Source: a virus | Lineage: Duplodnaviria > Caudoviricetes | Direction: 5' to 3' (one strand) | Length of the DNA: 64,000 bases | Virus record (IMG/VR): IMGVR_UViG_3300037455_000462 | Span: 32,001-96,000 of that record | Shown: one piece after another, positions 61 through 53,271 of the stretch | How the letters are laid out: the number at the start of each line of letters is the position of its first letter | How positions within the stretch are numbered: position 1 is the stretch's first letter | Translations under genes and position numbers: made by a program | The notes under the pieces: model-generated | What the model was told of the DNA's origin: nothing | Database searches by the model: none | The model's input: only the letters and a program-made list of their open reading frames with translations

Positions 61-462
61 CTAATTGTCGCAATATCCTTCGACATCCTCGCCAAGCCAA
101 ACATACAATGTTTCTTGACGATATATTTTTACACTTGCATATCCGTCACTTCCGATTTTGGCGCGTTTTATGTCGTCTTCATAAACAACATCGGAATCTG
201 GTTTCACCGAATATGTAGCAAAATTTTTTGCTCCCTTTGTCAACTTATCCCCAATACGAACCAACCAAAGCCAACTCTTCGTCCTTTTTTCGATTTTATA
301 AAAATATACAATACCTCTATATGTACAATACACAATATCCCCAACGTGATAGAGTTTTCTTGCAACATTGGTTTTGTCAAGCCGTTCCTTGCTGATAGGT
401 TGTATATCGAGTTTCTCGGACAACGCCGTGACAAACTCATCAAACTTCATTATATTATTCAT
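61..462 (-). CDS. hypothetical protein with EKLDIQPISKERL tag (putative head/internal protein)
   Basis: 133-aa ORF; N-terminus FDEFVTALSE|KLDIQPISKERL; last gene seen in the late operon starting at 5838. Confidence 0.7.
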   Translation of the reverse strand: MNNIMKFDEFVTALSEKLDIQPISKERLDKTNVARKLYHVGDIVYCTYRGIVYFYKIEKRTKSWLWLVRIGDKLTKGAKNFATYSVKPDSDVVYEDDIKRAKIGSDGYASVKIYRQETLYVWLGEDVEGYCDN

Positions 463-471
463 AATCTGATA

Positions 472-1002
472 TTATTCTACTTTATCAAATATTTCATTGA
501 GTCGTTTTTCAATATAAGAAAAATCACCCCTAAAATTAGCACGGAATGGAAAGAGTCCAAATGTTGTTGACATCGGTATCAAATAACGGATACTGTCTTC
601 CACCCTGCAAGCAAACACATCACAGTTACCATACCCATACACCTTTGCTCTGTTATAAAAATCATCCCAATCATAAAATATTGACTTTGAAAAATCCATA
701 ACCCAATCATCCGTGACTATTTGACCGTTAATTTTGGGAAACCTACCATTACTTTTCGGTTGTGACGCAAGTGGATAAAACCAAGCACCTTTTTTTATTT
801 GTGTGACAAGTTTCGGCAATTTACTCATTTTTATAGGACGAATGTTTAATTTTTCTTCAATACCTCCTTCACTTCCATAATAGAAAAACGGTTTATATGT
901 GTCATTAAAGTCAATTTCATACGGATGATTGGCATTCATATAACTTCTAACCCCAAATTGCTTAACTTTAGCCATTTCATCAATTCTCATTATATGTATC
1001 AT
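472..1002 (-). CDS. hypothetical protein with degenerate tag (IEE|KLNIRPI)
   Basis: 176-aa ORF in same operon; tag at residue 50. Confidence 0.65.
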   Translation of the reverse strand: MIHIMRIDEMAKVKQFGVRSYMNANHPYEIDFNDTYKPFFYYGSEGGIEEKLNIRPIKMSKLPKLVTQIKKGAWFYPLASQPKSNGRFPKINGQIVTDDWVMDFSKSIFYDWDDFYNRAKVYGYGNCDVFACRVEDSIRYLIPMSTTFGLFPFRANFRGDFSYIEKRLNEIFDKVE

Positions 1003-1024
1003 AATTCAAATTATGTTTCAATAT

Positions 1025-2035
1025 TTATACAGACCGACCCACTCTCTCGAACTTCACAATCAAATCCAATATGTCAACATTCTTTATGTATTCGAATGTG
1101 AACGGCTGTATCTGCCGTTTCTCGTGTCTGTATATAGCCTGCACGGTAAGCGAATTTTGGTTTGACGATTTCGGCATCATCATACGGTCGTCCTCAAACT
1201 CGCCAAGCATAACACTATCTAAAAATTCACTATTAGCGTGTAGTTTGCGGCAAGTCAAAAGAACACCCTCGCTTTTGCCCTTTTGCTGTTTGGCTGCAAG
1301 GTATATCGAATGCGGAAGCGTGCTTGCATAGTCATATTTCTCAATATCGTCAATCGTCACATACACGTATATGGTCATCCTTGTGTCAAGCGAACCCGTT
1401 GTAATCACAACATCACCGCTTCTCAACTTTTTCTTCCAACCTTCCTTCTCTTCTATTCTAACCCACGGGTGTATGTCGCCGAGGCGTTCCTTGGATATGG
1501 GCTGTATGTTCAGTTTCTCATTGGTCGCCGATTTGCGTTCCCACACAACATAGGCGTTCTTTGTCGAAAATTCCTTCGCAAACACATTGACATAAAACTT
1601 GTTCCTTATCCAATATCCTTTGAGTGTCGGATAACGGTAAACTCTCATAATACTGCCGACTTTACCGTGAAGCCAATTCAAGTATTCATCATAATCCATA
1701 AGTCTCGTGGTGTTGTTTATGTCATACCCAAAGCCTGGTGTAATCATCACAAAACACCCCTTGTGCAAAAAATCCTTTGAAACGAGATACTCGGAGTCGG
1801 ATTTCGGAAAAAAGCCGTAATCGTCATAAGAAACATAAACCAAATAATTGAGTTCTTTGACATCGTTGTTCCCCGTGCCGAATGACACAACATCCCCCGT
1901 CTTGAAATTCTCACGCATCTCGCTCGCGGACTTGTATCTGACAAGGACACTACCAAGGCGTTCCTTGGTTATCGGCTGTATATTGAGTTTTTCCGTAACT
2001 TCGGAAAAACCGTCAACGCTTAACACTTTTGTCAT
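1025..2035 (-). CDS. two-module hypothetical protein, each module starting with the EKLNIQPI[TS]KERL tag
   Basis: Tag at residues 15 and 173; both modules share a GDVV...YV[ST].DD...G..[VL] pattern. Confidence 0.75.
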   Translation of the reverse strand: MTKVLSVDGFSEVTEKLNIQPITKERLGSVLVRYKSASEMRENFKTGDVVSFGTGNNDVKELNYLVYVSYDDYGFFPKSDSEYLVSKDFLHKGCFVMITPGFGYDINNTTRLMDYDEYLNWLHGKVGSIMRVYRYPTLKGYWIRNKFYVNVFAKEFSTKNAYVVWERKSATNEKLNIQPISKERLGDIHPWVRIEEKEGWKKKLRSGDVVITTGSLDTRMTIYVYVTIDDIEKYDYASTLPHSIYLAAKQQKGKSEGVLLTCRKLHANSEFLDSVMLGEFEDDRMMMPKSSNQNSLTVQAIYRHEKRQIQPFTFEYIKNVDILDLIVKFERVGRSV

Positions 2036-4695: not shown

Positions 4696-5259
4696 TTATA
4701 TGTTGTTCGGTTTTCTCGGATGTTTATCACGCTTGTTCAGCAAAGGCGAATATCCGAACATACCCCTTGTGTTGGTCGCATTCAGCAATTCCCATTTCGA
4801 CAAATCACCGTCAAAGCGGGAATATTCAAACATACGGGTTGCCCGCCGCACATTGCGCACATCCCAATCGGAAATGTCCCCGTTGAAATCGCTTCCAGCA
4901 AACATAACACACATATCTTCCACCTTACCCACATTCCATTTTGAAATATCCCCGTTGAATTTTGAATTTCGGAACATAGCGAACATATTTGTGACATTAG
5001 ATACATCCCACATCGAAATATCGCCGTTAAACTTGGAGTTGAAAAACACGCCGTTCATATCGGTTATCGCCGAAACGTCAATCACATTAAGATTGCACTC
5101 ATACCCCTGCTCGTCAATCAAACGGTCTATCGTGTAAATCAACTCTTCCCTTGTTTTGGAAAAATACAGACGGGTGAACATTTTATCCAACCGTTCTTTT
5201 GAAATGGGCGATATGTCAAGCCGCTCCCTTATATATCTTTCTGTTCCGAGAATCTCCAT
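4696..5259 (-). CDS. BspA/DUF285-type repeat protein with N-terminal tag
   Basis: Repeats FNGDISxWDVSNVTNMxxMF; N-terminal IRE|RLDISPISKERL. Confidence 0.8.
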   Translation of the reverse strand: MEILGTERYIRERLDISPISKERLDKMFTRLYFSKTREELIYTIDRLIDEQGYECNLNVIDVSAITDMNGVFFNSKFNGDISMWDVSNVTNMFAMFRNSKFNGDISKWNVGKVEDMCVMFAGSDFNGDISDWDVRNVRRATRMFEYSRFDGDLSKWELLNATNTRGMFGYSPLLNKRDKHPRKPNNI

Positions 5260-5813
5260 TACTGTTGTGCATTATATTTCTGCTCGATATCCGCAATGTA
5301 ATCTTCGAGATATTTGAGGTGTTCCTCCTCGTCAGCGAGAATATGCACAGCCATATCGTAAGTTGTCGTATCCTTTCCCCTCGTGAAGTCAAGTAGTTTC
5401 TGATAGCCGTCAATGGCACATTTCTCGTGGGCTATGTTCATAACAACAAGAGACCTTGTGTCGTATGGCTTCTGCGGAATTTGATAAGCGCATTCGCTCA
5501 ACGAAGCCAAGTTGCGGATGTCTTTGAGTTTTTCGGCATCGCCGCCGAGTTCCGAAATGCGCTTGATAATCTTCGCCGCGTGGTCGTTGAGTTCGTCATC
5601 AGCCATTTCAGCAAATGTTTTTTCGATACTCGGTCTTTCATCGCCAACCAAGAACGGAACAATGACGTTATAGTGATACCATTGCAGGATTTCCTCGGCA
5701 TAACGCTTTTCGAGCATCTCCACCAAAGCAACTCTGTCAATGCGTTCCTCAACGCTCTCATTCACCTTGTTTTTGAAATAATCCTTGTTTGTGTATTGAC
5801 TCAAATTTTTCAT
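5259..5813 (-). CDS. ferritin/bacterioferritin/Dps-like four-helix protein
   Basis: E...Y, DExxxH, HEKCAIxxY and DEEEH di-iron-type ligands; start moved to MKNLSQY, just below the late promoter. Confidence 0.8.
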   Translation of the reverse strand: MKNLSQYTNKDYFKNKVNESVEERIDRVALVEMLEKRYAEEILQWYHYNVIVPFLVGDERPSIEKTFAEMADDELNDHAAKIIKRISELGGDAEKLKDIRNLASLSECAYQIPQKPYDTRSLVVMNIAHEKCAIDGYQKLLDFTRGKDTTTYDMAVHILADEEEHLKYLEDYIADIEQKYNAQQ

Positions 5814-5830: not shown

Positions 5831-5838
5831 TATTTATA
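5831..5838 (-). promoter_or_regulatory. T4-type late promoter TATAAATA
   Basis: Exact TATAAATA about 18 nt upstream of the ATG at 5813. Confidence 0.7.
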
Positions 5839-5906: not shown

Positions 5907-8378
5907 TTATTTGTAAAACGGGCTGTTGTTTCTGCCCTTACAATTTTCGTCAAGTTCGATGTAGCAGCGTGACAATGGTTCATATTCGGGATTTACGCAC
6001 CAATCCAAATACTTTTTGAACTGGCTCATTATATCATAATTGTAGATAACAAAAAGCAACTTGTTCTTCATAGGTATGAGTTTTTTCAATGGATTTGCGT
6101 TGAACTCGCCGTCCGTCAAGAAAATCCATACGGAGAATCTGTCGTTCTGCACATTCTTCAATGCGTAATCAACACATTCGTTAACCTTTGTTGCAGTTCT
6201 GCCCGCATTATTGCTGTTAACCATATTCAGAATCTTCGTTATAGCCGCGTCTTTGTCTCTCTTGACCTCATCAGCCTTGAAGTAAACGGATGAACCCGTG
6301 TCGAGATTCCTTGCAAACGGCATAAGCGTAAGTCCAGAATATTCGAGTTTGTCGCAGCAATCGACAATTGTGTTGGCGAAAAGTTCGACAGTATTCCTAT
6401 CCACGGAATTTGATGTATCCACAAACACGTTTATATTCTGCGGTGCTGCATCGTTTTTGGGGTGATATGGCTGAATTATGTCGTGTGCAAGCGTTCTTCT
6501 GTTACCCCAACGAATCTTGTTTCTATCGGGTATCTTATGTTTTTTGTTGGCGTAGAGTGTATTGGATTCAAGGAATTTCTTGACAACTTCCTGCCATAAA
6601 TCATTTATGGTCTGCTGACTCATCTTCAACTTTGTGAATAATTTGCCCAACGCGCTTTTAGGACTGTTTTTGACAATATCATCACGTAGTTTTTGTATAT
6701 CGTCACCGCCCATAACGGGTCTGCTTGACAAATCGTGCATCAAATCCTTTATGCTATCCTCACCAAAACCGCTTCGTTTCAATGATTCACCAAGTCTTGA
6801 ATTCAAATCGCTCTGCCTAATCATCTCACCGACAACCCTCTGATTGACACGCTCGGTACTGTGGTTTATTCTGCCGCCATAGTCAAGAACCTTGCTCTTT
6901 CTATCACGGTTTCTTTCCTTTCTGTCAGTTCCATCGGAATAACCGTGTTGCTTTTTCTCGGAACGTTTGTCAATAACAGTGTCGGAATTGCCATTATTAG
7001 CCTTGCTTTCGTCACCGTTTTGACTATCCTGCTGATTGCCTTGCTGTCCGCTCTGCTGTCCGCTCTGCTGTCCGCTCTGCTGTCCGCTCTGCTCGCCGTT
7101 TTCTCGACTGCTTTCTTCACCATTTTGACCATTCTGCTGACTTCTCTGTTGACTTGCCTGCTGCTGTCCGTTGTCGGAACTGCTGTTCATATCTGCGGAG
7201 TTATCCGCTTCATCAACCGCTCTGTCAGCCGACCTTTGGGCTTTGTCGTTTTCGCCTTGTGCTTTCTTTGCATTTTCCCTTGCCGCATCGGTATCGCCTT
7301 TTTCGGCGGCTTCCTTTGCGCTGTCGGCTGCGTCTTGTGCGTCATTGGCTGCATCGTTTGCCTTATCAGCCGCTTCCTGCGCTTTGTCTGCGGACTGCTG
7401 CGCTCTATCAGCCTTTGACTTTGCGTTTTGGTATTCTTGTGAATCCTCGCCGTATTTACGCTTTGCTTTCTCGGCGGCTTCCTTTGCTTTGTCGGCTATA
7501 TCCTGCGCATCGTTTGCCGCTTCCTGCGCGTCATTTGCCGCATCCCAAGCATCTTCAGCAGCCTTTTGCGCTTCGTCAGCAGCCTCATCAGCGGACATAT
7601 CGGAAACGTTCTTTTGACCGCCGCCGTTGGAATCACCATTTTCGCCATTTGATTCCTTTTCTGCGTCTTGAGCAAACCAAGAGTTCATCTTGGCATCGTC
7701 CGCTGCGTTTTTCGCATCATTCGCATTCTCGCTTGCGCTGCCTGCGGCATCCCTTGCGGATTGGGTATCGCCATTCTTTGCCGCTTCTCTTGCCTTGTTA
7801 GCGTCACTTTGTGCTTTGTCTGCCGATTCCTGCGCTGAATCAGCGGCTTCCTGCGCATCGTTTGCTGCGGATGCCGCCTCGTCCGCGAGGTCTTTCATAT
7901 CCTTGTATTCCTGCGAATTTTCACCGAACTGTGCCTTTGCTTTCTCCGCATTTTCATTCGCTTTGTCCGCCGCGTTCTGTGCGCCGATAGCGGACTGACG
8001 TGCGGAATCAGCGGACTTCTGTGCTTTGTCTGCCGAATTCTGTGCGCTGTCAGCAGCCTCGTCAGCACTCATTTCGTCTATGCTTTTGGAACTGCTGCCG
8101 CCACTCTGACTATCGTCTTGCTGTTGACTATTATCCTTTTCGTCTGAAGGGAGAAGGCTGTCGTCTGACGATGAATCACCACCGCCTTGCTGATTCTTGT
8201 TCGGAACAATGGCACGCTCTTTATGGGTTTCGGGTTTTTTCTCTTCCTGCTGACCGCCTCCCCCTGGGGGTGGTGTTCCGCCAATCAATTCACCCATACT
8301 GTCGGACAAACCTTTTACAAGACCGTCCTCGTATTTGCTATAACCATTCGGTATTTCGGATTCGTTTATTTGTTTCAT
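5907..8378 (-). CDS. vWA-domain protein with long Ala/Asp/Gln low-complexity stalk
   Basis: C-terminal MIDAS-like VFVDTSNS...T...FLTDG; two copies of an MSADEAAD-led A/D-rich repeat. Confidence 0.8.
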   Translation of the reverse strand: MKQINESEIPNGYSKYEDGLVKGLSDSMGELIGGTPPPGGGGQQEEKKPETHKERAIVPNKNQQGGGDSSSDDSLLPSDEKDNSQQQDDSQSGGSSSKSIDEMSADEAADSAQNSADKAQKSADSARQSAIGAQNAADKANENAEKAKAQFGENSQEYKDMKDLADEAASAANDAQEAADSAQESADKAQSDANKAREAAKNGDTQSARDAAGSASENANDAKNAADDAKMNSWFAQDAEKESNGENGDSNGGGQKNVSDMSADEAADEAQKAAEDAWDAANDAQEAANDAQDIADKAKEAAEKAKRKYGEDSQEYQNAKSKADRAQQSADKAQEAADKANDAANDAQDAADSAKEAAEKGDTDAARENAKKAQGENDKAQRSADRAVDEADNSADMNSSSDNGQQQASQQRSQQNGQNGEESSRENGEQSGQQSGQQSGQQSGQQGNQQDSQNGDESKANNGNSDTVIDKRSEKKQHGYSDGTDRKERNRDRKSKVLDYGGRINHSTERVNQRVVGEMIRQSDLNSRLGESLKRSGFGEDSIKDLMHDLSSRPVMGGDDIQKLRDDIVKNSPKSALGKLFTKLKMSQQTINDLWQEVVKKFLESNTLYANKKHKIPDRNKIRWGNRRTLAHDIIQPYHPKNDAAPQNINVFVDTSNSVDRNTVELFANTIVDCCDKLEYSGLTLMPFARNLDTGSSVYFKADEVKRDKDAAITKILNMVNSNNAGRTATKVNECVDYALKNVQNDRFSVWIFLTDGEFNANPLKKLIPMKNKLLFVIYNYDIMSQFKKYLDWCVNPEYEPLSRCYIELDENCKGRNNSPFYK
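7042..7089. repeat. 12-bp tandem repeat x4 encoding (SGQQ)n
   Basis: TGCTGTCCGCTC repeated four times. Confidence 0.9.
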
Positions 8379-8469: not shown

Positions 8470-9372
8470 TTATTGTTTTGCTCCGAATCTGCTGCGGAGT
8501 TCTTCGGCTACTTTGCTCATATCGCCGCCATATTTCTTTGAAAGACTTTCAAGTTCCTCAAACGTCTTTGTCGCATTGCGCTTATTAGCCTTGTATAATT
8601 GTCTAACAAGTTCCCTTCCGTCACGGTGTCCGTCCTTCCATTCAACAGAAGTCGGGATTTTGTTTTTCTTTTCTTGGTCGTTGTCGTCATTCTGCTGTTG
8701 TTGCTTCTGCTGCTGTTTCTGCTGCTGTCTCTGTTGCTTTTGCGCATTAGCCTTTTTCTGTCTGTCAATATAAAACTTGAAATCCTTTATAATGGTTTCC
8801 ATCGGAATACCTATAAGGCGTTTCTCATACCAACAGTCTATGGAAGGCCAGAACTCCTCGTTGCATAGACCGTCACTCACCATCATTCCGTTGATTTCCA
8901 AGTCGCCCGCAATATTGAGGTCTCCCCAAGTAGCCTTCGGAGTATTGACGGCATTATATGCGTGCATTCTCGAAATGTGGGCAAGCATAGAGTGCATAGC
9001 CTCGTGATAAAGACATCTGAACACACCGATTGCGCTCATATTCAAACCTCTTGGTGGTTTGTTATACAAGAAGCCGACATTTATGCAATAAATCATATTG
9101 TCGCTGACACACATAGTCGGAGTGACATAATCGTCCAACAAATACACAATGGTCGCACCACGAATGTACTTATATTCGTATGGATGGGTGTTCTTGAAAT
9201 ACATCAACGCGCTGTTAACGAGGTCAACAAACCTGCTGCCCTCGACCACATTGCCGTCATCCATAAGGATTCCGCCCATAGCGATAAGGTCTTCCGCATT
9301 GCCACCCTCTATATTGGTGTAACTTTCAAGAAGCACGGAATACTTCGTTGAGTCGTATATGTAATTTTTCAT
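8470..9372 (-). CDS. putative zinc metallopeptidase (DUF2201_N-like, vWA/MoxR-associated)
   Basis: LYHEAMH (HExxH) followed by NIAGDLEIN; start moved to MKNYIY. Confidence 0.7.
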   Translation of the reverse strand: MKNYIYDSTKYSVLLESYTNIEGGNAEDLIAMGGILMDDGNVVEGSRFVDLVNSALMYFKNTHPYEYKYIRGATIVYLLDDYVTPTMCVSDNMIYCINVGFLYNKPPRGLNMSAIGVFRCLYHEAMHSMLAHISRMHAYNAVNTPKATWGDLNIAGDLEINGMMVSDGLCNEEFWPSIDCWYEKRLIGIPMETIIKDFKFYIDRQKKANAQKQQRQQQKQQQKQQQQNDDNDQEKKNKIPTSVEWKDGHRDGRELVRQLYKANKRNATKTFEELESLSKKYGGDMSKVAEELRSRFGAKQ

Positions 9373-9388
9373 TGCCAAAAAATATTTC

Positions 9389-9420
9389 AAAACTCCCAAC
9401 CTATGAGATTGGGAGTTTTT
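9389..9420. terminator. intrinsic terminator hairpin
   Basis: AAAACTCCCAA-N9-TTGGGAGTTTT after the AAA gene stop. Confidence 0.7.
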
Positions 9421-14313: not shown

Positions 14314-14321
14314 TATTTATA
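14314..14321 (-). promoter_or_regulatory. late promoter TATAAATA
   Basis: Exact match overlapping the upstream stop codon, about 30 nt before the ATG at 14284. Confidence 0.65.
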
Positions 14322-15063
14322 TGTTACGGGGATTCTGTTTCTGAAATTCATTTATGTCAACTTTAACCCAATCAAGATGTTCGCGTTTGTCCATCAAAAT
14401 GTACCAATGACCGCCGTAGTCACTTTCCTCCCAACACAACTTCGCGTAATAGATGGTTTTTCCGTGTATATCCATCAGAGGGTATCTGAACATTCTGTCG
14501 GATGAAACGTCTGTTGTCAATTCGCATTTGTCGTAATATTTCGCGGGGACATAATCCGCCCTCGCATAAACACGGAATCTTCTGTACTTCATCAAAGAAC
14601 GCAATCCGTCCGCAATATCGTCATAATCGTACAAATGAAATATCTCGTATTGTTCCTCCGTATTCATAAACGCAGGCATAATGCAGCAGAACGCATCAGA
14701 ACGCTTATGCCCAACGACATACCCGTTCTTTTCGAGTATGCGTATAGCATTGTCTATGTCGTTGGAGTTGACGGGAAACTTCCAAACCTCGTGTTCTATG
14801 TCGCAGTCTTTGTCGATAAACACGCCGCCGACCCGTGACTTGAACACGGAGTATTCCGTGTTTTTGTCATCAATGTCATACCACATAAGACTTGAAACGA
14901 GTGCCACGGCGACCGCTTTCATCCTCTCCACGTTGTTATTCGGCATTTCGTTGAATTTGTTGAATTCGTCCTTTTTGATTTTCAGATTCGACAATGACGC
15001 TCCGAGGTTTCCGAGCCTCTCCTTGCTTATGGGCTTTATGCCGAGTTTTTTTACGCCTTCCAT
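14317..15063 (-). CDS. hypothetical protein with N-terminal tag variant (KKLGIKPISKERL)
   Basis: 248-aa ORF overlapping the end of the tube-like gene. Confidence 0.7.
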   Translation of the reverse strand: MEGVKKLGIKPISKERLGNLGASLSNLKIKKDEFNKFNEMPNNNVERMKAVAVALVSSLMWYDIDDKNTEYSVFKSRVGGVFIDKDCDIEHEVWKFPVNSNDIDNAIRILEKNGYVVGHKRSDAFCCIMPAFMNTEEQYEIFHLYDYDDIADGLRSLMKYRRFRVYARADYVPAKYYDKCELTTDVSSDRMFRYPLMDIHGKTIYYAKLCWEESDYGGHWYILMDKREHLDWVKVDINEFQKQNPRNI

Positions 15064-15611
15064 ACAGCCAACTTTATTTCAACCTCCTGCGCACGGAATG
15101 TGCAGTTAAATGTTTTCATATCAATCGTATTGTTTGAATAGTTGAAGTCGAGACCGTCTATGCTCGTGAACAAGACGTTCTTGTATTCAATGGTGAACGC
15201 CTCGTACCCGTTTCCGTCAAAAATGCGCATAAACGGAACACCGTTTATGAACTTGTCGTTTGTTGACGAATAGTAGTAGTAGAACAAGTCGAGCATAAGA
15301 AAATAGTTTATGAACCCGTCATACAACTGCTGCGTGATTGTAAACTCCTTCTGCATCAGTTTCTCTGGCGATGCCGCCGAGCGGTATATCCTTGAATACG
15401 GGGTCTTTCTGTCGTATTGCTCGACCACATCGAACTGCACGTTCTGCATATTGAACCCTTGTATTCCGTAGTTCACATAGTCTATGCAGCGTCCGAACAT
15501 ATTGCCTGGGATTCTCTCCAAATACGGCATATACTTGTCTTCAATTTCTTGTGGAATGAGCGTCTTCGCAAAGAAGAACTCAAACATATTGTTTCTTGCG
15601 GGTTGTAACAT
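15051..15611 (-). CDS. putative tail tube-fold protein (gp19/gp54-like)
   Basis: RNNMFEF N-terminus, terminal LDFNYS...TFNCTF strand pattern, 186 aa, late promoter. Confidence 0.45.
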   Translation of the reverse strand: MLQPARNNMFEFFFAKTLIPQEIEDKYMPYLERIPGNMFGRCIDYVNYGIQGFNMQNVQFDVVEQYDRKTPYSRIYRSAASPEKLMQKEFTITQQLYDGFINYFLMLDLFYYYYSSTNDKFINGVPFMRIFDGNGYEAFTIEYKNVLFTSIDGLDFNYSNNTIDMKTFNCTFRAQEVEIKLAVWKA

Positions 15612-15627: not shown

Positions 15628-15635
15628 TATTTATA
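15628..15635 (-). promoter_or_regulatory. late promoter TATAAATA
   Basis: Exact match about 17 nt upstream of the ATG at 15611. Confidence 0.7.
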
Positions 15636-16476: not shown

Positions 16477-17823
16477 TCAGTTCTTTATCGTTTTCTTCAA
16501 TGACTTCAAGTCATCCAAATACATATCAGACGGAACTTTCTTTCGCATTTCTTCAAGTTCTACCTTTTTGGAATCCCGCTCTTTTATGAGTTCGGCATAC
16601 CTTTCCTTGGTAAGCGAATAAATCGGCATATTTATCAGATAGTCGAATGAATTTGAAACCTTGTCGAACTTGTTTGCTTCAAGCCAATCGCAGATTTCCT
16701 TTTTCGGGACGTTGTTCACTTTCAGTTTCTTGTCGATTATGGACTTCACGAAACGCGCCTTGTTCGTCAGCACCATAAGTTCCTTTTCGAGAACGCCTAT
16801 CAGATATTTCTTGCGTTTGTCATACCAAGTGAGTCGGTAGTCGCAGAAATAAGGAACGATGTCTTCCGCCTTGTCGAATTGCAGAAGCCTGCCGTTCTCG
16901 TCAAGTGTAACGACATTCTCCGTTTCCGAACTGTTTATGTGAAGCACGCTTTCGAGTTTGTTGGATTCGATAAGTTCCTTCAGTGCCGTGCGTGTGAATT
17001 TCACCACATAATCGACAACTGACGAACTGTTGTTGTCATAATCCACAATCACCTTTTTGTCAACAAGTGAGTCAAGGTATTCCTCGTATTTCTCGAATGT
17101 TATGGACGGCGGCAAATCCGTCACCCTAACGGTGGTTGTGTTTAACACCTTGTAAACACCCGATATGAGCCACTTGTTTTTGTTTTCCTTATCCCTTGTG
17201 TATGTGCCTCCGAACTCCGCGAGCCAAGGCTTCAGTTCCTTCGGCTTTTTTCCGTTGAGATGCGCTATGCAGGCATCAACAACCTCAACGGGATTTCTGT
17301 TGAGTATGTTCGTTGAATACCCCACCGCTATGCCTGGACTTCCGTTCAGCAGCAACGTTGGAACTATCGGCAGAAAAAAGTTCGGCTCTACTACATAGCC
17401 TTCCTCGATTCTGTTTTCAAGCAACTCAAAGTCCTTGTATAAAAGTCTGAAATTTTTGGAAAGTTTTGTTCCGATATAACGGGGCGCACCCGCTGACGGA
17501 ACACGGAGGCTTCCGTACTGACCGTAGCCTTCAAGCAGCGGCAGGCTGTTCTTGAAAGTCTGCCCCATATAGGTTATCGCATCGTACATACTTCTGTCGC
17601 CGTGCGGGTACAACGCCATAGACGAAACATATCCGCCGAATTGAAAAACCTTCATAGATTTCTCGTTCCCGTTTTTCCAAATCTTGTTCGCAACAAAAAC
17701 AATCTTGCGCTGAACGGGCTTGAACCCGTCAATGCAACTCGGTATAGCCCTGTCCTCAACAACCGATTTCGCGAACAGCCGTTGGTCAACATCCAAAAAG
17801 TTGTCAATAGTCCTTAATTTCAT
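16477..17823 (-). CDS. gp52: DNA topoisomerase II medium subunit (gp52; GyrA/ParC-like)
   Basis: RAIPSCIDGFKPVQRK, YPHGD, APRYI catalytic Tyr, GIAVGYST. Confidence 0.92.
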   Translation of the reverse strand: MKLRTIDNFLDVDQRLFAKSVVEDRAIPSCIDGFKPVQRKIVFVANKIWKNGNEKSMKVFQFGGYVSSMALYPHGDRSMYDAITYMGQTFKNSLPLLEGYGQYGSLRVPSAGAPRYIGTKLSKNFRLLYKDFELLENRIEEGYVVEPNFFLPIVPTLLLNGSPGIAVGYSTNILNRNPVEVVDACIAHLNGKKPKELKPWLAEFGGTYTRDKENKNKWLISGVYKVLNTTTVRVTDLPPSITFEKYEEYLDSLVDKKVIVDYDNNSSSVVDYVVKFTRTALKELIESNKLESVLHINSSETENVVTLDENGRLLQFDKAEDIVPYFCDYRLTWYDKRKKYLIGVLEKELMVLTNKARFVKSIIDKKLKVNNVPKKEICDWLEANKFDKVSNSFDYLINMPIYSLTKERYAELIKERDSKKVELEEMRKKVPSDMYLDDLKSLKKTIKN

Positions 17824-19971: not shown

Positions 19972-20544
19972 TCATTTAAGGTTTTCTTGTAAATATTCCT
20001 GCGCTTTCTTGAACAACTCCCTCGTTTTCGAGAGTGAGATGCCCATAGTTTCCGATATACTTATAAAATCGGTTTTTCCGTTATGCGTCTGCTTGAAACC
20101 GAACTTCATATCAACAATGTCACGGCTGTTGCTGTCAAGTTCGCCCACAAGACGCTTGTAGTCAAGCACCAATTCCTCATAGCGGTTGTCGGTGTGCTGA
20201 CCGTGGTCTATGTCGTCACCGTTGTCGTATGTGATTGAAGTGTAGGAATGAACGATGTTCTCATAGTTTCGGAAAGCCGAATTAAGTCTGTTGTAGGGTA
20301 TTTTGACGATGTTGCGCTGCAAGTTTATCTCGTTCTTCGCGTACTCCGTCATAAGCGGTTTGCAGAAAACCCAAAAATTAGGGTTTTTCTCTTCGTCATA
20401 CCGTTCCATACTTTTGGCAACGGCAATGGCACACACCTGCCTAACGTCATTTTGGGTTTCGACATTGAAGCAGTTGAATTTGCAGAATATGTAATTAAGT
20501 ATTCTGCTGAAATCCTTTGATTTAATCAATTCCTCGAAGTTCAT
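19972..20544 (-). CDS. sigma-70-like RNA polymerase sigma factor
   Basis: Region-2-like D..Q...A..KSMERYD..K..NF; region-4 HTH ISETMGISLSKTREL. Confidence 0.65.
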   Translation of the reverse strand: MNFEELIKSKDFSRILNYIFCKFNCFNVETQNDVRQVCAIAVAKSMERYDEEKNPNFWVFCKPLMTEYAKNEINLQRNIVKIPYNRLNSAFRNYENIVHSYTSITYDNGDDIDHGQHTDNRYEELVLDYKRLVGELDSNSRDIVDMKFGFKQTHNGKTDFISISETMGISLSKTRELFKKAQEYLQENLK

Positions 20545-37745: not shown

Positions 37746-37753
37746 TATAAATA
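37746..37753 (+). promoter_or_regulatory. late promoter TATAAATA
   Basis: Exact match 16 nt upstream of the ATG at 37770. Confidence 0.7.
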
Positions 37754-37769: not shown

Positions 37770-38690
37770 ATGAAAATATACACAGTCACAGAACTCACAA
37801 GAATACTTGAAGGAAAAGAGGGTATATGCAACGGTATGACCCTTGACGAGATTTCCGACAAATACGAGAATTTCAAGGGAAGCGACAAATCAATGCTCCG
37901 CTCAATCTTGCAACTCCTTTCCGATATGGAATACACGGAGAACTATCTTGACGTGCTTAACGAACTGCTTTCCGACAAGCGTGTCCGCAACATTATGAAA
38001 AAAGGATTCGGCGGTATTTGGGCTGATATGGACATAAGGGTTTCAACGGACACCACGGTTAGAACCGACATTGTAATCCCCACACAGAACGAGATTGATA
38101 TGACGAAGAGCCTCAAATGGGGTCTCACCAACCACGGGAACACAATCGAGCATATCCACAAGAAATACCCTATGCTCAAAGGCACGCCAATCGTGACGTT
38201 CAACGGCAAATACATCATTGACGGACATCACAGATGGTCGCAGATATACTGTATGAACAAGGTTCGTGACGGAGAGCCGACAAAGTTCGCCGCAATCAAT
38301 CTCGTGAACAAGGACGTTGACCCCATCGACATTCTGAAAATCACACAGACAACGATAGGAGTGGACTTGCACCCAGAGGAAATTGTGCCGCACGTCACAA
38401 CCGAAAACCCGAAGAACAACCTTCTGAACAAGGCGTGCAGCGAGGAAATCCTTAAAGAGTACATCGAAAACAAGATTTCTGACGATACTGTAAGCCGTAT
38501 GATTGAATACCACAAGAAAGACGGTCTGAAAGACAAAAACAGCGTCATCGGTTTCATACTGAAGAACTCGCTCGAAATGAAAGAGAACAACAACTGCATA
38601 GACGATGCCCCGAATCGCGGTGCTATGCCGCAGACCGATGCGGACAAAAACCTCTTCAACCACATCAAAAAGACATCCGACATATCATAG
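37770..38690 (+). CDS. ParB/Srx-like domain protein
   Basis: IPTQ.EI, PIV...YIIDGHHRW. Confidence 0.7.
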   Translation: MKIYTVTELTRILEGKEGICNGMTLDEISDKYENFKGSDKSMLRSILQLLSDMEYTENYLDVLNELLSDKRVRNIMKKGFGGIWADMDIRVSTDTTVRTDIVIPTQNEIDMTKSLKWGLTNHGNTIEHIHKKYPMLKGTPIVTFNGKYIIDGHHRWSQIYCMNKVRDGEPTKFAAINLVNKDVDPIDILKITQTTIGVDLHPEEIVPHVTTENPKNNLLNKACSEEILKEYIENKISDDTVSRMIEYHKKDGLKDKNSVIGFILKNSLEMKENNNCIDDAPNRGAMPQTDADKNLFNHIKKTSDIS

Positions 38691-38705: not shown

Positions 38706-39119
38706 ATGGAACACATAAAAGACTATAAGTCGTTTATCGGGGAAAAGATGAACATCGCCCCTATGACAAAGGACAGACTCGACAGAATAAGCAAGGGCGA
38801 GGGGCTGTTCTACGTGTACAAGGACACGGACGGCGAATCGGTCTATGTGAGCGATTTCCCGTTGAGATGGGACGGCATAGAGGGAATCGGAAAATATAGG
38901 GATTTCAACGATGCCGTGAAATCCATATCGAACTACGACACAGCGAACACGCTGTATTCCGCGAACATAGCGAATACAGTGATGGACACTTTCAAATACG
39001 ACACACTTGACAAGATATATGAAAACGGAATCCGACTGTTCGACCCGAAGAAAAAAGACTTCGAGTCAGCCGTCTTGCCGACAATAACCGATGTTGTGAG
39101 ATACATATTAAAACATTGA
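38706..39119 (+). CDS. tagged hypothetical protein (single copy of the domain triplicated in the next gene)
   Basis: FIGE|KMNIAPMTKDRL; LYS...MD.F.Y..L......FDP. Confidence 0.75.
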   Translation: MEHIKDYKSFIGEKMNIAPMTKDRLDRISKGEGLFYVYKDTDGESVYVSDFPLRWDGIEGIGKYRDFNDAVKSISNYDTANTLYSANIANTVMDTFKYDTLDKIYENGIRLFDPKKKDFESAVLPTITDVVRYILKH

Positions 39120-39125
39120 CGGAAT

Positions 39126-40490
39126 ATGCTGAATTACCAAGAATACATAAACGAAAAACTGAACATCGCGCCCGTCACAAAGGAAAGGCTTGACAAGATA
39201 ACGCACAGCATACGCGATGAGAAAAGCATCAAGATATACAAGAACAAATATACCGAACTGCTAATCAGCAGAGACAAAATAGACTCAACCGACTACAAAG
39301 AAATCGGTTCATTCGATACATTGAAAGACGCTATCCGCTTCAAGGGTGAAAACTACCAAAAGCAGACCGTACTGTATTCTATGTTCTTGGCTGTGGAATT
39401 GATGGATTTGTTCGGTTACAAAAAATTGGAAGAACTGTTCAGCGGTGGATTTGAACTTTTCGACCCGTCCTCGATATACAACAAAGGCGAATTGACAATA
39501 ATCATCGACACCACCGACTACTTCAATGCCATACAAGAATACAATAGGCTTGAGTTGTATAAAAAGATGCAGGAAGACGCTAAAAAAAGGATGCAGAAGA
39601 ATGAAAAGGAACAAATGATGAAAGACCTCTGCGGGAGGTTGTCATACAGCGTCACCGAAAAACTGAACATTTCCCCCGTTACAAAAGAAAGGCTGTCCAA
39701 ACTAACAGATAAATTACACAAAGACAACAAAATACGTTTGTATCAAAGCAAAGACAGAGAAATCATAGTCAGCGAAGAAATAATCGACTCAAGAAAATTC
39801 AGCGAGTTCAAGTCATTCAACAAAATAGAAGACGCGCTGACTTATTTGGATTCATACACAAAAGGCAAGACCACTCCCGTTGTGTATTCTATGCTAATGG
39901 CGGAAGAAATGAGGGACGCGCTCAATTACAAATCAATAAATGACTTGTTCGACAACGGATTTGTGATGTTTGACCCGCTGACAATAAACAACAATTATAT
40001 ATCCATTGTATGCACGGAGGAAGAATACATAAACGCTATGCTTTATTACACAATGAATAAACGCGACCTTAACGTCTCGGTAAAACAACCTATGGCAAAC
40101 GGTGGATTGTCGGAAAAACTGAACATAAAACCAATCACCAAAGACAGACTTGGACGATTGAAAGACAACCTCGGCATACACATCTACCAAGACCATTATG
40201 GCGAATGCCTCATAAGCAGGGAGGAAGTAAAAAACAGCAGATTCACAGAGGTGGCAAAGGTGAGCGATTTAAGCGATGTGCTAAATTGGATTGAGGAATA
40301 CGACCCTACCGCCGCCATATATTCAATACATTTGGTCAAAGACCTAATCGAAGAATTCGGATATTCATCTTTGGAAGACGCTTTTGAAAACTTTGCCGTT
40401 TCGTGTTTCGACCCGTCAGATGCGTCCGATGTGATAACGGTAATCGAAGATATGGAAAACTATGAACGTGCTATGAAGAACGCAAAATAA
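39126..40490 (+). CDS. three-module tagged protein (putative polyprotein)
   Basis: Tag at residues 10, 178 and 330, each followed by a homologous YS...Y..L...FDP domain. Confidence 0.8.
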   Translation: MLNYQEYINEKLNIAPVTKERLDKITHSIRDEKSIKIYKNKYTELLISRDKIDSTDYKEIGSFDTLKDAIRFKGENYQKQTVLYSMFLAVELMDLFGYKKLEELFSGGFELFDPSSIYNKGELTIIIDTTDYFNAIQEYNRLELYKKMQEDAKKRMQKNEKEQMMKDLCGRLSYSVTEKLNISPVTKERLSKLTDKLHKDNKIRLYQSKDREIIVSEEIIDSRKFSEFKSFNKIEDALTYLDSYTKGKTTPVVYSMLMAEEMRDALNYKSINDLFDNGFVMFDPLTINNNYISIVCTEEEYINAMLYYTMNKRDLNVSVKQPMANGGLSEKLNIKPITKDRLGRLKDNLGIHIYQDHYGECLISREEVKNSRFTEVAKVSDLSDVLNWIEEYDPTAAIYSIHLVKDLIEEFGYSSLEDAFENFAVSCFDPSDASDVITVIEDMENYERAMKNAK

Positions 40491-45706: not shown

Positions 45707-47701
45707 CTATTTCGATGTGACGCTGAATTTGAGTTTGTTGTTTTTCTTGTCAACGCCGACACTCACCTTGTTCTTGCCATCGCCGTCATTGATAATCAAG
45801 TCGGTTATCTCATCGGATATGTCGTGTTGGATTGAGCGTATCAATGCCCTCGCGCCCATTTTCTCCTCCGCAGACTTCTTCACAATGAACGTCTTTGCTT
45901 CGCCGCTGATGGAAAGTGAATATCCGAGGTCGGAAAGCGACTGTCTGACTTCCTCGATTTCGTTGTTGAAAATCTTTTCGAGTTCGGACTCTCCGAGTTC
46001 GTTGAAATAGCAGATGCTGTCGATTCTGTTCAAAAACTCTGGTGAGAAAATCTTGTTCACCGTTTTCTCTATGATTTTCTTTCGGTTTTCCTCGTTCCGT
46101 CTTTCCAAGTCGTCCTTTTCCGATGCAAAACCTATGACACCGCCTGCGTTTTTAGCCTCCTTGACACCCGCGTTGCTTGTGAGTATGATGATGGTGTTGA
46201 CGGCTGAATGCTTCACGCCGTTGGCATCCGTTATGTAGCCTTCGTCAAGCAGTTGGAGTATCGTGTTGAAAATGGACGGATGCGCCTTTTCGATTTCGTC
46301 AAAAAGGATGACAGAATAGGGGTTGTTCTTGATTGCGTTGCAGAGAACACCGCCCTCGCCGTAGCCTACGTAGCCAGGGGGCGCACCAATGAGTTTGTTC
46401 ACGCTTATTTCATCGGAATACTCGCTCATATCAAGGCGAACCATAGAATCCTCCGAACCGAAAAGATACTCGGAGAGTTTCTTCGCGAGGAACGTCTTGC
46501 CGACACCCGTAGAGCCGAGGAATATGAAATTGCCTACCGTGTGGTTTTTCTTGCGGATTCCGAGTCTGTTTCTCTTGACGGTCTTGCAGACCATAGACAC
46601 AGCCTCATCCTGCCCGATGACCTTTTTCGATATGTCGCTCTCCATATTCTTCATCCTCGCCATATCGCTTTCCGTGAGTTTGGCAACGGGAACTCCCGCC
46701 ATATCGCTGATTGCGGAAAACACGTCCTCGTCCGTTATCACGTTGTCGGTCTGCGACTTGAACGCCATAGAACTCAAATCGTTGATTGAGCATTCAAGGT
46801 CGGAAGCCTCCTCGTTCAGTTTCAGAATCCGAAGCATACTGTCCTTTATGCTGCCGTCATTGTGGTTGACGGCATCCTTAATCTCGTTTTTCTTATCCTC
46901 AAGTTGGGAAGCCCGTTTCGCGATGTGCGAGTCTGGCGTATGCACCCTATTGGCGTGCCTTGCGTAAATATGCTCCATAACAAGCACAGCCTTTTTCGGC
47001 ATTTGGAAACCGTTTTTGACATACTTGTCGGAGAGGGCGACAATCTTGTCGGTTGTCTGCTCGTCCATAACGGTTCTGAAATACTGATTGTAGTGCGAGA
47101 TTTTCTTGTGGAGGATTTCCTTCGTGTTCTCGATGGACTGCGGCTTGACATTGATTCTCGTGAAGTGGCGGAGAAGGTCGTACTTGTTCTCTATGCTCTT
47201 GAGTTCGTTGTTGTTGCAGCAGCAAATGACCTTGACACCGTATTTTATGGCACGCTCGATATGCTGCCATATCATAAGGTTCACAACATTGTCGTTGATT
47301 ATGGAGGCTATGTTGTCGATGAACAGAACACGCTTGTCGTGTTTGTCCATAATGTACTCGAACACGCTGTTAAGCCGTTCCTCGTAGTCGGAAACCTTCT
47401 GTATGCCATCGGTGAGGCGCAACTGAATGAGTTCCCATATCTTCATATTGTAGAACGGCATAGGTGATTTGTATGTGTCGGCGAGATATTGTATGTGCTT
47501 CACAAGGGAAGTCTTGCCAACGCCGTTTGCGCCCGTGATTATGACGTTGTTCTGCGGTATCAGCAGAGCGTCAAATACACGTCTCGCATAGTCCTCGAAA
47601 AAAAGTGATTCAACGCCTTCGACCTTATCGAGGCATTGGTTTTCTGGTTTCGTGTCCCCGTAAATCTTAACGGGTTCGCCTTTCGGCATATCAATCTTCA
47701 T
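45707..47701 (-). CDS. clpB: ClpA/ClpB-family AAA+ chaperone lacking the N-domain
   Basis: GANGVGKT; VIGQDEAV, GSTGVGKT, RLDMSEY, GAPPGYVGY, LFDEIEKAH, PEFLNRID, GAR. Confidence 0.88.
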   Translation of the reverse strand: MKIDMPKGEPVKIYGDTKPENQCLDKVEGVESLFFEDYARRVFDALLIPQNNVIITGANGVGKTSLVKHIQYLADTYKSPMPFYNMKIWELIQLRLTDGIQKVSDYEERLNSVFEYIMDKHDKRVLFIDNIASIINDNVVNLMIWQHIERAIKYGVKVICCCNNNELKSIENKYDLLRHFTRINVKPQSIENTKEILHKKISHYNQYFRTVMDEQTTDKIVALSDKYVKNGFQMPKKAVLVMEHIYARHANRVHTPDSHIAKRASQLEDKKNEIKDAVNHNDGSIKDSMLRILKLNEEASDLECSINDLSSMAFKSQTDNVITDEDVFSAISDMAGVPVAKLTESDMARMKNMESDISKKVIGQDEAVSMVCKTVKRNRLGIRKKNHTVGNFIFLGSTGVGKTFLAKKLSEYLFGSEDSMVRLDMSEYSDEISVNKLIGAPPGYVGYGEGGVLCNAIKNNPYSVILFDEIEKAHPSIFNTILQLLDEGYITDANGVKHSAVNTIIILTSNAGVKEAKNAGGVIGFASEKDDLERRNEENRKKIIEKTVNKIFSPEFLNRIDSICYFNELGESELEKIFNNEIEEVRQSLSDLGYSLSISGEAKTFIVKKSAEEKMGARALIRSIQHDISDEITDLIINDGDGKNKVSVGVDKKNNKLKFSVTSK

Positions 47702-50454: not shown

Positions 50455-50496
50455 CAGCGTGATTGAATGAAAAAATAACCATTAAAAATAGCGATT

Positions 50497-51255: not shown

Positions 51256-51288
51256 CGGTGGGCGTTTTTGTTCTTTTTCATATTGATA

Positions 51289-51317
51289 GGGCGGATGCAG
51301 AAGCACCCGCCCTTTTT
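51289..51317 (+). terminator. intrinsic terminator
   Basis: GGGCGGATGC-AGAA-GCACCCGCCC-TTTTT. Confidence 0.7.
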
Positions 51318-51370
51318 ATATATCGCGCATATATGAAGAAACCGCACTGCCTCGCAATGCGGTATCCTTG

Positions 51371-52486
51371 TTATGAGTTTGTCGTCAGTATCACATAGTG
51401 GTCGATGTACTTCATTGTTGTCTTGACAACTTTGTCGTAGGTCAGCCGTTCAAGTGAAGGCGGCATTTTCATACCGCTGATGTTGGTGAACCTCATCGGG
51501 TTCTCGTACAGAACGGCATCGTTCATTTCGCGTCTGATTTGCAGGCTTGACATAACGGTTTCGTAGCGTTCCTTTGTGAGAAGGTTTTTCGCGTCCGCTA
51601 TGAGTTCCTCCATACGTCCTTTGAGTTTGTTTGTGTTCACAGAATCCGTGCAGGCTGTGATATAGACCACGCCGCTGTCGTGTTTTGCCATAACGCCGCC
51701 GCATACATAGTAGGTCAGACCGAGTTTCTCGCGGAGTTCGACATAGAATGGGGATTCGAGACCGTTTGTCAGCATATCTATGCCTACTTGCAGGAACGGG
51801 TAGTCGGATTTGTTCACCCTTTTCTTCGAGAACAAGAACACGGGTGTTTTGTCATCGGACGCGATTTCAACGGGTTCTATTCCGCTGCGCTTTCCGAATT
51901 TGTATGGGGCTTCGTCTTTGTCGATGCTGCGGTATTCCGCTTTGTCAAAGAACTCCGTTCTCTTTCTGCCGACTTCGACCACGCGGGCTGCTTTGGTGAA
52001 GCGTTCAGCGTAAACGCGATTCATATCCTCGTATGTGAAGTTCTCAATATCGGATTTCTTTCCGATTGTCATATATTCACCCCACCATTTGCGCATAACT
52101 TGCAGCCAACTTGCTCTGTCGGAGTCGAATATGTTGTCCATATATTCTTGCAGGACTACGTTGCGCTCGTTGATGAAATCTTCATCGGTCACACAATCCA
52201 AACCGCCCGTCAGACGCTTGTAGAGTTCGGTTTTCAGTTCGTTTGTAAGATATTTGTCGAGACCCGTGAAATACACGACAACGCTTTCTGTCGATGTGTA
52301 TGCGTTCCAATTGATACCGAGTTTCGACAGTTTGTCGTACATATCCTTGAACGTCTTGCAGATTAAGTGTTCCATAAGGTGCATTGTTCCCTGCTGACCT
52401 TCTTTTTCGATTCTTGAGCCTGCATCAAAAACAATATGCAGGGTAGTCATTTTCAGACTTTTCTTTTTGAAAATGTAGTTTTTCAT
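51371..52486 (-). CDS. M16 family (insulinase-like) zinc peptidase
   Basis: HLMEH (HxxEH), NAYTS, ERNVVLQE, LREKLGLTY. Confidence 0.88.
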   Translation of the reverse strand: MKNYIFKKKSLKMTTLHIVFDAGSRIEKEGQQGTMHLMEHLICKTFKDMYDKLSKLGINWNAYTSTESVVVYFTGLDKYLTNELKTELYKRLTGGLDCVTDEDFINERNVVLQEYMDNIFDSDRASWLQVMRKWWGEYMTIGKKSDIENFTYEDMNRVYAERFTKAARVVEVGRKRTEFFDKAEYRSIDKDEAPYKFGKRSGIEPVEIASDDKTPVFLFSKKRVNKSDYPFLQVGIDMLTNGLESPFYVELREKLGLTYYVCGGVMAKHDSGVVYITACTDSVNTNKLKGRMEELIADAKNLLTKERYETVMSSLQIRREMNDAVLYENPMRFTNISGMKMPPSLERLTYDKVVKTTMKYIDHYVILTTNS

Positions 52487-52527
52487 CTATGAATGGATTT
52501 AAGTGGTTTGTAATATATGTATAACTC

Positions 52528-53271
52528 TTATCTTTTCAGCGACATATTGAGCGGGGGCTTTATTTCGCCCATAACCGTTTTCGGCAGGTTCGCCGATTCA
52601 TCTGAAGGCAGGCTGACGCAGCCTTCCATATTGAGGTCGCCTCCCACGTATTTTGGTGCGCCTTTCAGCGAAACGAGGTTTTCGCAGTCGAACAAGTCGA
52701 AGTCGCCCCCTATTCGTGACGGTGCGCCATCGATTGTTTTCAGATTATGGCAATGCGCACATTCCAAATATCCGTGGATTATCTTCGGTGCGCCCTTCAG
52801 TGACGTTATGCCGCTTGAACTGACAATGAGGTTGCCGACCTCATTCGGCATACCTTCAAGCGATGTCAATTTCGTGCATCCGTAGCAGTTGAACAGACCG
52901 TCAACGAATTTCGGAGCGTGTTCGAGTGATTCAAGGCTTGTGCAGTCGTGGCATTCGAAAGACAACGCGGATATGGGCGCACCTTCGAGGGTTTTCAGTT
53001 TCGTGCAGTAATTGCAGTCGAATTTGCCTTCTATCGTCCCGAATTTGAGCGGCAGTTTTCCATCGACCAAATCATCGTTCCTTACAGTCACCCTCTGTTT
53101 TGAATCGTAGCGTCTCGTTCCGATGTTGTATTTCAGATTGTAAATACGGATGAACTTTTTCGTTTTTTCATCGTGTTCTGGCTCATTGCCCATCTCGTCC
53201 AATGTCTTTTTCGATATGGGCTTTATGTCGAGTTTCTCGTTTACGAATTCAGAACTGTTCAGTATTTCCAT
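52528..53271 (-). CDS. leucine-rich repeat protein (LxSLEGxP repeats) with N-terminal tag
   Basis: FVNE|KLDIKPISKKTL; about seven L[KT][ST]L[EK]G[AM]P repeats. Confidence 0.8.
   Translation of the reverse strand: MEILNSSEFVNEKLDIKPISKKTLDEMGNEPEHDEKTKKFIRIYNLKYNIGTRRYDSKQRVTVRNDDLVDGKLPLKFGTIEGKFDCNYCTKLKTLEGAPISALSFECHDCTSLESLEHAPKFVDGLFNCYGCTKLTSLEGMPNEVGNLIVSSSGITSLKGAPKIIHGYLECAHCHNLKTIDGAPSRIGGDFDLFDCENLVSLKGAPKYVGGDLNMEGCVSLPSDESANLPKTVMGEIKPPLNMSLKR

Follow-up and report, generated by a model that had tools for sequence, protein, structure and literature searches.

Eight proteins encoded in a 64,000-nucleotide stretch of a tailed virus share one short peptide, although the bodies that follow it are mostly unrelated. 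The stretch, hereafter the window, comprises bases 32001-96000 of IMG/VR record IMGVR_UViG_3300037455_000462, a 105,907-bp contig with a CheckV completeness of 33%. What could a phage gain by placing the same few residues on so many different proteins? An earlier note on this DNA proposed that the prohead protease exposes the peptide, which would then serve as a label for packaging into the head or for ordered ejection. We describe here the anatomy, distribution, and genomic setting of this tag, together with the proteins that bear it, and we lean toward reading it as a two-part head-cargo label of a T4-related megaphage, an uncultivated phage known here from its genes alone.

Anatomy of the shared tag

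A six-frame regular-expression search of the window gave 10 strict copies and 1 degenerate copy of the tag, in agreement with the 11 copies in eight open reading frames (ORFs) listed previously, and all 11 lie in the frame of long ORFs. Across 234 distinct tags, the conserved unit spans 15 residues, [I/V/L/F]-[N/S]-E-K-L-[N/D]-I-x-P-[V/I]-[S/T]-K-[E/D]-R-L, in which the core E, L, I, and P are essentially invariant. Glu occupies the position that would be P1 of a protease site in 232 of these 234 tags, and Asp is found there in none; the second acidic position of the core takes E in 93 and D in 65. P3 is aliphatic or Phe (I in 101, V in 74, F in 24, and L in 22) and is almost never A, S, or G. 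The conserved part had been placed entirely after the cut, but the unit starts at P3 and so lies partly before the predicted cut.

The tag occurs in two settings. In 206 N-terminal copies a moderately conserved leader, M-x-I-L followed further on by Y or F, stands ahead of the core, with 9 to 12 residues before the Glu. The 58 internal copies hold the 15-residue core without the leader, and their information content falls below about 1 bit on either side of it. Conservation ends abruptly after R-L. ORFs that encode several modules have one core ahead of each, including ORFs that combine modules of different families.

Five of the tagged ORFs that carry the unit in the window illustrate these settings on the minus strand. 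The core lies near the N terminus of ORF 61-462 (379..423; 35.6 bits), and the degenerate copy is internal, at residues 48 to 62 of ORF 472-1002 (817..861; 24.7 bits). The two-module ORF 1025-2035, whose modules belong to a family that we call A, has its first core at 1955..1999, found by both regular expression and profile, and its second between the modules at 1481..1525. The core of ORF 4696-5259 (5188..5232) precedes a DUF285 body (E = 4.7e-45), and that of ORF 52528-53271 (53200..53244) precedes a body of family B, which resembles leucine-rich repeats (LRR); other members of family B match Pfam LRR_4. On the plus strand, regular-expression matches mark the core of the single-module ORF 38706-39119 (38736..38780; family D) and cores 2 and 3 (39651..39695 and 40107..40151), both internal, of the three-module ORF 39126-40490, whose first core lies at 39147..39191. 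The remaining copy, in ORF 14317-15063 (15013..15057, minus strand), had been described as lacking the Glu, and this is the case; the leader is missing too, and the syntenic ortholog in the related genome G001, introduced below, likewise has the core with neither leader nor Glu. ORF 14317-15063 adjoins a tail-tube-like gene.

The structure of the two-module protein of ORF 1025-2035 was predicted with AlphaFold2 from 44 aligned sequences. Both tags form low-confidence linkers, with a predicted local distance difference test score (pLDDT) of about 36 to 59 (below 60 throughout core 2) and a short helix at K-E-R-L, and they flank two compact β-rich domains with pLDDT values of 85 to 95. The tag is thus predicted to be an exposed, flexible linear motif outside any fold.

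Distribution and conservation at the peptide level

The earlier note suggested that a hidden Markov model (HMM) of the tag be run against the whole genome and related phages. A profile HMM of the core identified 18 tag sites in 15 ORFs of the whole contig, at 24.7 to 39.9 bits; the best nontag site scored 10.3 bits, all others scored 5 bits or less, and reversed or shuffled six-frame peptides reached at most 6.5 bits. The tag is therefore not limited to eight genes, as seven further tagged ORFs lie in the contig outside the window. The contig is collinear with the segment from 312 to 411 kb of a relative, G001 (413,021 bp, rated complete), in which 68 tags of at least 12 bits were found in 58 of 580 ORFs, or about 10%. 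Four related tag-bearing IMG/VR contigs, G001 among them, gave 81, 94, 23, and 26 matches in an alignment search.

Beyond these genomes, 1.84 billion cluster representatives were searched exhaustively with the profile, which matched 169 proteins at E ≤ 0.001, each representing a cluster at 50% identity; in nearly all of them the match starts at residue 1 or there are two to five matches per protein. A word-indexed protein search with the first 40 residues matched solely the query itself, and neither DNA nor protein matches were found in GenBank phages. Among 185,579 species genomes of cellular organisms, a degenerate DNA pattern for the core matched one contig, JAZOQL010000020.1 (our locus L039), a 1,344-bp sequence with three genes of the tagged type that had been binned in a metagenome-assembled genome of the Rikenellaceae. 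It is a mis-binned phage fragment and offers at most a weak hint on host or habitat. Since this lone cellular match is itself a phage fragment, the tag is phage specific and confined to a small clade. A literature search found no paper describing it, and the Jug-phage paper (PMC12880540) does not mention N-terminal tags.

Conservation had been placed at the protein level, and the codons agree. Where two tags share a residue, they use the identical codon in only 41 to 49% of pairs, and both codon families are used for Arg (CGN and AGR), Ser (TCN and AGC), and Leu (CTN and TTG). Because synonymous sites of the tag are scrambled in this way, selection acts on the peptide and not on the DNA. Among the tags of the window and G001, 42 of 44 copies use AAA for the Lys directly after the Glu, while AAA and AAG are used equally for the second Lys of the core; the AAA preference may reflect a small constraint at the nucleotide level.

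These data bear on one alternative, in which the shared N terminus has no function as a peptide and is a relic of duplication or cassette shuffling behind a common promoter and start region. Tagged genes do stand in tandem arrays with many paralogs, and several share a late promoter and its spacing to the start codon, as such a history would leave them. A relic would not, however, be expected to keep its residues while synonymous sites were randomized, nor to keep the 15-residue core but not the leader in internal copies, nor to recur on about 30 unrelated sequence clusters of bodies and in all 169 of the metagenomic clusters. We regard this explanation as highly improbable.

Late promoters and neighbors of tagged genes

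The sequence TATAAATA occurs at 35 sites in the contig, against about 8 expected, and 27 of these precede the start of an ORF on their own strand by no more than 150 nt, in most cases by 20 to 37 nt. The sites at 5831, 15628, 37746, and 53287, which had been described as heading the operons of the tagged genes, were all found again. The first (5831..5838, minus strand) heads a run from 5813 down to 1025 that includes tagged ORFs 4696-5259 and 1025-2035, and an extra site (1022..1029, minus strand) precedes tagged ORF 472-1002 by 27 nt, with tagged ORF 61-462 next in line. ORF 15051-15611 and tagged ORF 14317-15063 are headed by the site at 15628..15635 (minus strand), and ORF 37770-38690 with tagged ORFs 38706-39119 and 39126-40490 by that at 37746..37753 (plus strand). 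The last (53287..53294, minus strand) precedes tagged ORF 52528-53271 by 23 nt, and an M16 peptidase gene comes after this ORF on the same strand. A gp55-like late sigma factor, recognized by weak matches to phrog_1740 and phrog_351 (E about 2e-4), is encoded at 19972..20544 (minus strand), and its ortholog in G001 is 87% identical; this factor is likely to read the TATAAATA promoters.

Tagged genes are enriched behind these promoters. In G001, 13 of 58 tagged ORFs have a TATAAATA box of their own, compared with 45 of 522 untagged ORFs (p = 0.004), and 38 of the 58 lie in a TATAAATA-headed unit, compared with 149 of the 522. The box also heads some nonstructural genes, for example 17820-18371 and 33220-34230. 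Same-strand arrays of tagged genes stand directly behind the terminase (four genes), capsid (three), and portal (two) genes of G001, and two further tagged genes precede its tail-tube gene. The statement that no tagged gene lies in a replication operon holds in a narrow sense only, as tagged genes are scattered among replication and methylase genes.

A head protease with tag-like repeats

Head genes of the T4 type are present in the relatives. The head genes of G001 include those for a gp23-type capsid protein (62022-63818; PF07068, 98 bits), a portal, and a large terminase, together with one for a prohead protease of the gp21/S77 type; the protease is found in G001 and G003 (PF03420 at 49.5 bits). 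No major capsid protein (MCP) match was obtained in G003, which is 48% complete. PF03420 also matches in G002 and G004, where the protein is a small paralog of 150 aa, and these matches were ruled out as the protease. The MCP N termini of G001 and G002 are too similar for the conservation of a predicted L-N-E cut site to be judged.

The G001 protease (647 aa) is encoded at 290916-292859 (L031:10916-12859, minus strand). Its catalytic domain was matched by Pfam (E = 1.4e-12), phrog_207, and PDB entry 5JBL (E = 1e-5), and a His and a Ser are present in the segments that align with GEL-x-[H]-P and SSR of T4 gp21. The C-terminal half holds 12 tandem repeats of 14 residues, of the type D-H-N-D-Y-L-A-E-K-L-Q-Q-N-F. 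AlphaFold2, run on the single sequence, predicted the repeat array to be helical, at a low overall pLDDT of 43. More than 6,000 metagenomic proteins, some of them marine, are built in the same way, with 10 to 22 units of Y-[LIV]-[AGS]-E behind the protease; the Y-L-A-E repeat hardly varies across this family, so that covariation with the tags cannot be read from it. Pfam labels part of the repeat-bearing protease only as DUF7603. In its layout the protein looks like a self-cleaving scaffold.

The repeats resemble the junction between leader and core. The pattern Y[LIV].E[KQ]L, which was chosen after both sequences had been inspected, occurs in the G001 proteome (128,134 residues) 9 times in the protease repeats, 26 times at tags, and nowhere else. 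When a profile of the repeats was run against the proteome, and one of the leaders against untagged proteins, tags and the protease ranked high, with scores of 5 bits or less that are not significant.

The resemblance extends to a known signal. A capsid-targeting sequence (CTS) of phage T4 was reportedly described by Mullaney and Black in 1996. The CTS is carried by IPI, IPII, and IPIII, all internal proteins, and by Alt, and the prohead protease gp21 cuts it off (for reviews, see PMC9026906 and PMC5694885); it is a peptide of 10 residues ending in F-I-A-E (PMC8442874), in which residues 4 and 7 govern targeting and residues 8 and 10 govern processing, which Asp at position 10 blocks (PMC9026906). 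Several leaders agree with it at 6 or 7 of 10 positions, among them those of window ORF 39126-40490 (positions 1, 4, 5, 6, 8, and 10), of protein P0011, and of leader-only neighbors of tagged genes in G001. At the counterpart of T4 residue 7, 138 of the 234 tags have Y or F, and the counterpart of residue 4 is aromatic in a subset of tags only. In N-terminal copies, then, the part that resembles the T4 targeting signal lies before the predicted cut, as judged from the sequences.

A few proteins have the CTS-like leader without the 12-residue core. In G001 there are about ten, several of them adjoining tagged genes; they end in aromatic-[IV]-x-Glu, and in the neighbors of tagged genes the leader is followed by a small residue, as in T4. 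Two more are encoded at 17820-18371 of the window (minus strand) and at 96959-97489 of the contig, just past the end of the window. Across all untagged ORFs the enrichment of such leaders is weak (19 seen, 10.8 expected).

The sharp end of conservation after R-L admits a different cut. The whole 24-residue tag might be a presequence that the phage's M16 (insulinase-type) peptidase removes after the Arg-Leu, leaving mature proteins tagless. In M16 enzymes, the mitochondrial processing peptidase among them, the cut falls two residues after an Arg. The peptidase gene (51371..52486, minus strand; 371 aa, H-x-x-E-H motif intact) is the next one downstream of tagged ORF 52528-53271, shares its strand and its TATAAATA-headed unit, and is conserved in G001 and G003. 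The adjacency to a tagged gene is seen in one genome only, however, the M16 gene of G001 having no tagged neighbor, and the invariant Glu and the resemblance to the protease repeats would be left unexplained. We know of no M16 enzyme in phage head maturation, and a literature search for one found nothing. We therefore think this route very unlikely; the peptidase might possibly serve instead as a second processing enzyme, or a peptide-clearing one, for head-maturation peptides or tags.

Variable bodies behind a constant tag

The bodies of the tagged proteins are diverse, and 90 modules fell into about 30 sequence clusters. The largest is family A, a β-rich family of 140 residues with 24 modules, including those of window ORF 1025-2035; it is followed by the LRR-like family of ORF 52528-53271 (19 modules), a Fib_succ_major family (7), and the family of 38706-40490 (6). 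Pfam recognized Fib_succ_major in 17, DUF285 in 15, and LRR in 5 of 187 tagged proteins, with single matches to a deaminase and to pentapeptide repeats; most had no match. For the fold of family A, Foldseek gave no match at E ≤ 0.001, and the best hit of a wide search with VIA-align had a Z score of 5.9, with scattered papain- and NlpC/P60-like entries below the trusted level.

These genes change quickly. Relative to G001, tagged genes are 29 to 47% identical or have been replaced, whereas neighboring core genes are 60 to 97% identical; likewise, the MCPs of G001 and G002 are 89% identical, and the tagged genes behind them differ. The cargo genes are thus hypervariable among conserved neighbors.

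Bodies of this kind raise the question of whether the tagged proteins act outside the head. In one alternative, the core anchors variable binding domains on the virion surface, on the outside of the capsid, the neck, or the fibers, where uncleaved decoration proteins or adhesins would be displayed, the multimodule ones in multivalent form. LRR, DUF285, and Fib_succ_major domains are typical surface binders, the genes are late and adjoin structural genes, each module has a core of its own, and ORF 14317-15063 and its ortholog, beside a tail-tube-like gene, hold the core alone. Surface anchoring nevertheless accounts neither for the strict Glu, never Asp, with its aliphatic P3, nor for the CTS-like leaders, nor for a motif shared solely with the prohead protease repeats, and we consider it unlikely.

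In another alternative, the tag docks a partner in the infected cell that is not part of the virion, such as the Hsp100/Clp-type AAA+ protein encoded at 45707-47701, and the variable domains are adaptors that bring host targets to it. An exposed flexible linear motif on protein-binding repeats would suit such a role, the phage does encode a two-ring AAA+ protein of this class, and a family that makes up about 10% of ORFs would fit host interaction. A specific link between tag and AAA+ protein is lacking, though, the late promoters and the position behind capsid, portal, and terminase genes point to the virion, and the protease-site features go unexplained. We judge this reading somewhat less probable still than the surface anchor.

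The AAA+ protein itself (minus strand) matches Pfam AAA, AAA_lid_9, AAA_2, and ClpB_D2-small, as well as phrog_4871 (E = 3e-145), and its ortholog in G001 is 86% identical; an unfoldase of this type is unusual in a phage.

A proposed two-part label for head cargo

We return to the head-cargo label that we favor. Its first part would be the N-terminal leader ending in aromatic-[IV]-x-Glu, a counterpart of the T4 CTS that resembles one unit of the helical Y-L-A-E-[KQ]-L array on the phage's own gp21-type protease. The leader would bring the protein into the scaffolding core of the prohead. There the protease would cut after the invariant Glu, freeing single-domain cargo and splitting the multimodule ORFs, as polyproteins, into separate modules; given that the protease's own repeats contain the motif, cargo might gain entry to the core as a mimic of the scaffold, with this same cut setting it free. 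The second part would be the 12 residues K-L-N-I-x-P-[VI]-[ST]-K-[DE]-R-L, which would stay on the new N terminus as an exposed strand-like stretch, a Pro kink, and a helix cap, and dock to a common partner inside the head. The cargo, a fast-turnover set of domains mostly of binding types, would travel in the virion and might be discharged into the host. We infer targeting, cleavage, packaging, ejection, and the partner of the second part alike from the genes and their setting.

Several observations lead us to this reading. The Glu that is never Asp and the aliphatic P3 match the T4 processing rule, and in the G001 proteome the repeats of the gp21-like protease share their motif exclusively with the tags. 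Tagged genes are enriched behind late promoters, and arrays of them come after the terminase, capsid, and portal genes. A flexible linker is predicted for the tag, and heterologous modules each keep a core. Finally, the leaders are CTS-like, the cargo changes fast, and cellular genomes lack the tag. The earlier note linked the tag to a T4-type protease and CTS, a link that gained support from the invariant Glu, the P3 residue, the protease repeats of relatives, gene position, and promoters; the note's further proposal, that the retained KLNIxPI[ST]KERL is a label for packaging or ordered ejection, names one candidate role for that part. Leaderless and internal copies hold the core, which indicates that it is kept for its own sake and has a function of its own, most likely in docking.

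Other observations weigh against head loading. The strongest conservation, at I, P, and L, falls after the proposed cut, unlike that of T4 CTSs, and is not explained by cleavage alone. The conserved copy in ORF 14317-15063 lacks leader and Glu and cannot act via cleavage. The bodies are mostly LRR, DUF285, and lectin-like domains, as in surface binding proteins, and not compact basic internal proteins; neither their isoelectric points nor their Cys content sets them apart from the other proteins of the phage. Genes for the protease and the capsid are known from the relatives and were not found in the contig of the window, which is a 33% fragment. The repeat pattern was selected after the fact, and the comparison of leader and protease-repeat profiles is not significant alone. 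To our knowledge, at least 58 tagged proteins per genome is also far above any known set of internal head proteins.

In a comparison with T4, both systems place a short N-terminal peptide on unrelated, nonessential, fast-evolving proteins, the peptide closes with aliphatic-x-Glu, in many of the tags preceded by an aromatic residue at the position equivalent to T4 residue 7, and the present lineage, as seen in the relatives, has an S77 gp21-type protease with gp23-, gp20-, and gp17-type head genes. Unlike in T4, conservation here is highest in the 12 residues after the Glu, which the mature protein would retain; cores also stand between modules, an arrangement suggestive of polyproteins, and there are at least 58 tagged ORFs per genome, compared with about 4 to 5. 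The bodies, known here only as genes, are mostly repeat or binding domains, whereas those of T4 are small and basic.

Encapsulin cargo peptides offer a possible analogy for the retained 12 residues: they are short, conserved, and flexible and dock inside an HK97-fold shell, although they are usually C terminal, have another consensus, and are not linked to a protease site. The giant phages phiKZ, 201phi2-1, and SPN3US provide a second comparison, with head or ejection propeptides that are cut by proteases of the gp175/gp245 type (PMC5694885, PMC10052503). In these phages, as proposed here, many head-internal proteins, including paralogous cargo families, are cut after Glu by a diverged gp21 homolog, and the protease cleaves its own C-terminal part. 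Their cut motif, however, is S/A/G-x-E or A-x-E (PMC5694885), and their propeptides, many of them above 100 residues, are not common to unrelated proteins, whereas the tag described here has I, V, L, or F at P3, as in T4, and is one short sequence on dozens of unrelated proteins. A propeptide of the phiKZ/SPN3US type was therefore rejected.

A stronger form of the head-cargo label can be put forward tentatively, as a possibility in which we have distinctly less confidence than in the label as such. The tag would then be a true two-step address, in which the leader mimics a repeat unit for loading and the retained peptide is an independent second docking signal, to the shell, the portal channel, or DNA, that sets position or order of release; polyproteins would be cut into addressed pieces, and a tenth of the genes would be swappable payload.

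If the head-cargo reading holds, T4-related megaphages of the gut or rumen type would have enlarged the T4 principle to dozens of exchanged proteins per genome, delivered as single domains and polyproteins, with a second peptide left on every mature cargo. Virion cargo of uncultivated huge phages could then be predicted by a simple sequence rule, and a good part of their "dark" gene content would have a candidate explanation. The tag is also compact and, with the protease and scaffold repeat that match it, might be used to load foreign proteins into capsids.

Other genes in the window

The T4-like character of the phage is evident from further genes of the window, which encode both topoisomerase II subunits, a fusion of dihydrofolate reductase and thymidylate synthase, a UvsX-like recombinase, gp46/47-like nuclease subunits, and a gp15-like tail sheath stabilizer, in addition to the gp55-like sigma factor and large unannotated ORFs. 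At least nine ORFs of DNA methyltransferase families, several in tandem, lie between 23535 and 37677. A ferritin/rubrerythrin-like protein (Pfam Ferritin, E = 5e-17) is encoded at 5259-5813 (minus strand), at the head of the late operon to which tagged ORFs 4696-5259 and 1025-2035 belong.

Two adjacent minus-strand ORFs, 5907-8378 and 8470-9399, match the same HNH endonuclease family, phrog_1314, at positions 238-377 and 47-182, respectively, and both have orthologs in G001. The ORFs at 32598-33278 and 34272-35252 (minus strand) together match the N- and C-terminal parts of a single UvsX-like ORF of 412 aa in G001. Between them lies an ORF of 336 aa (33220-34230, minus strand) with a TATAAATA box of its own, and the recombinase gene is therefore interrupted in the window.

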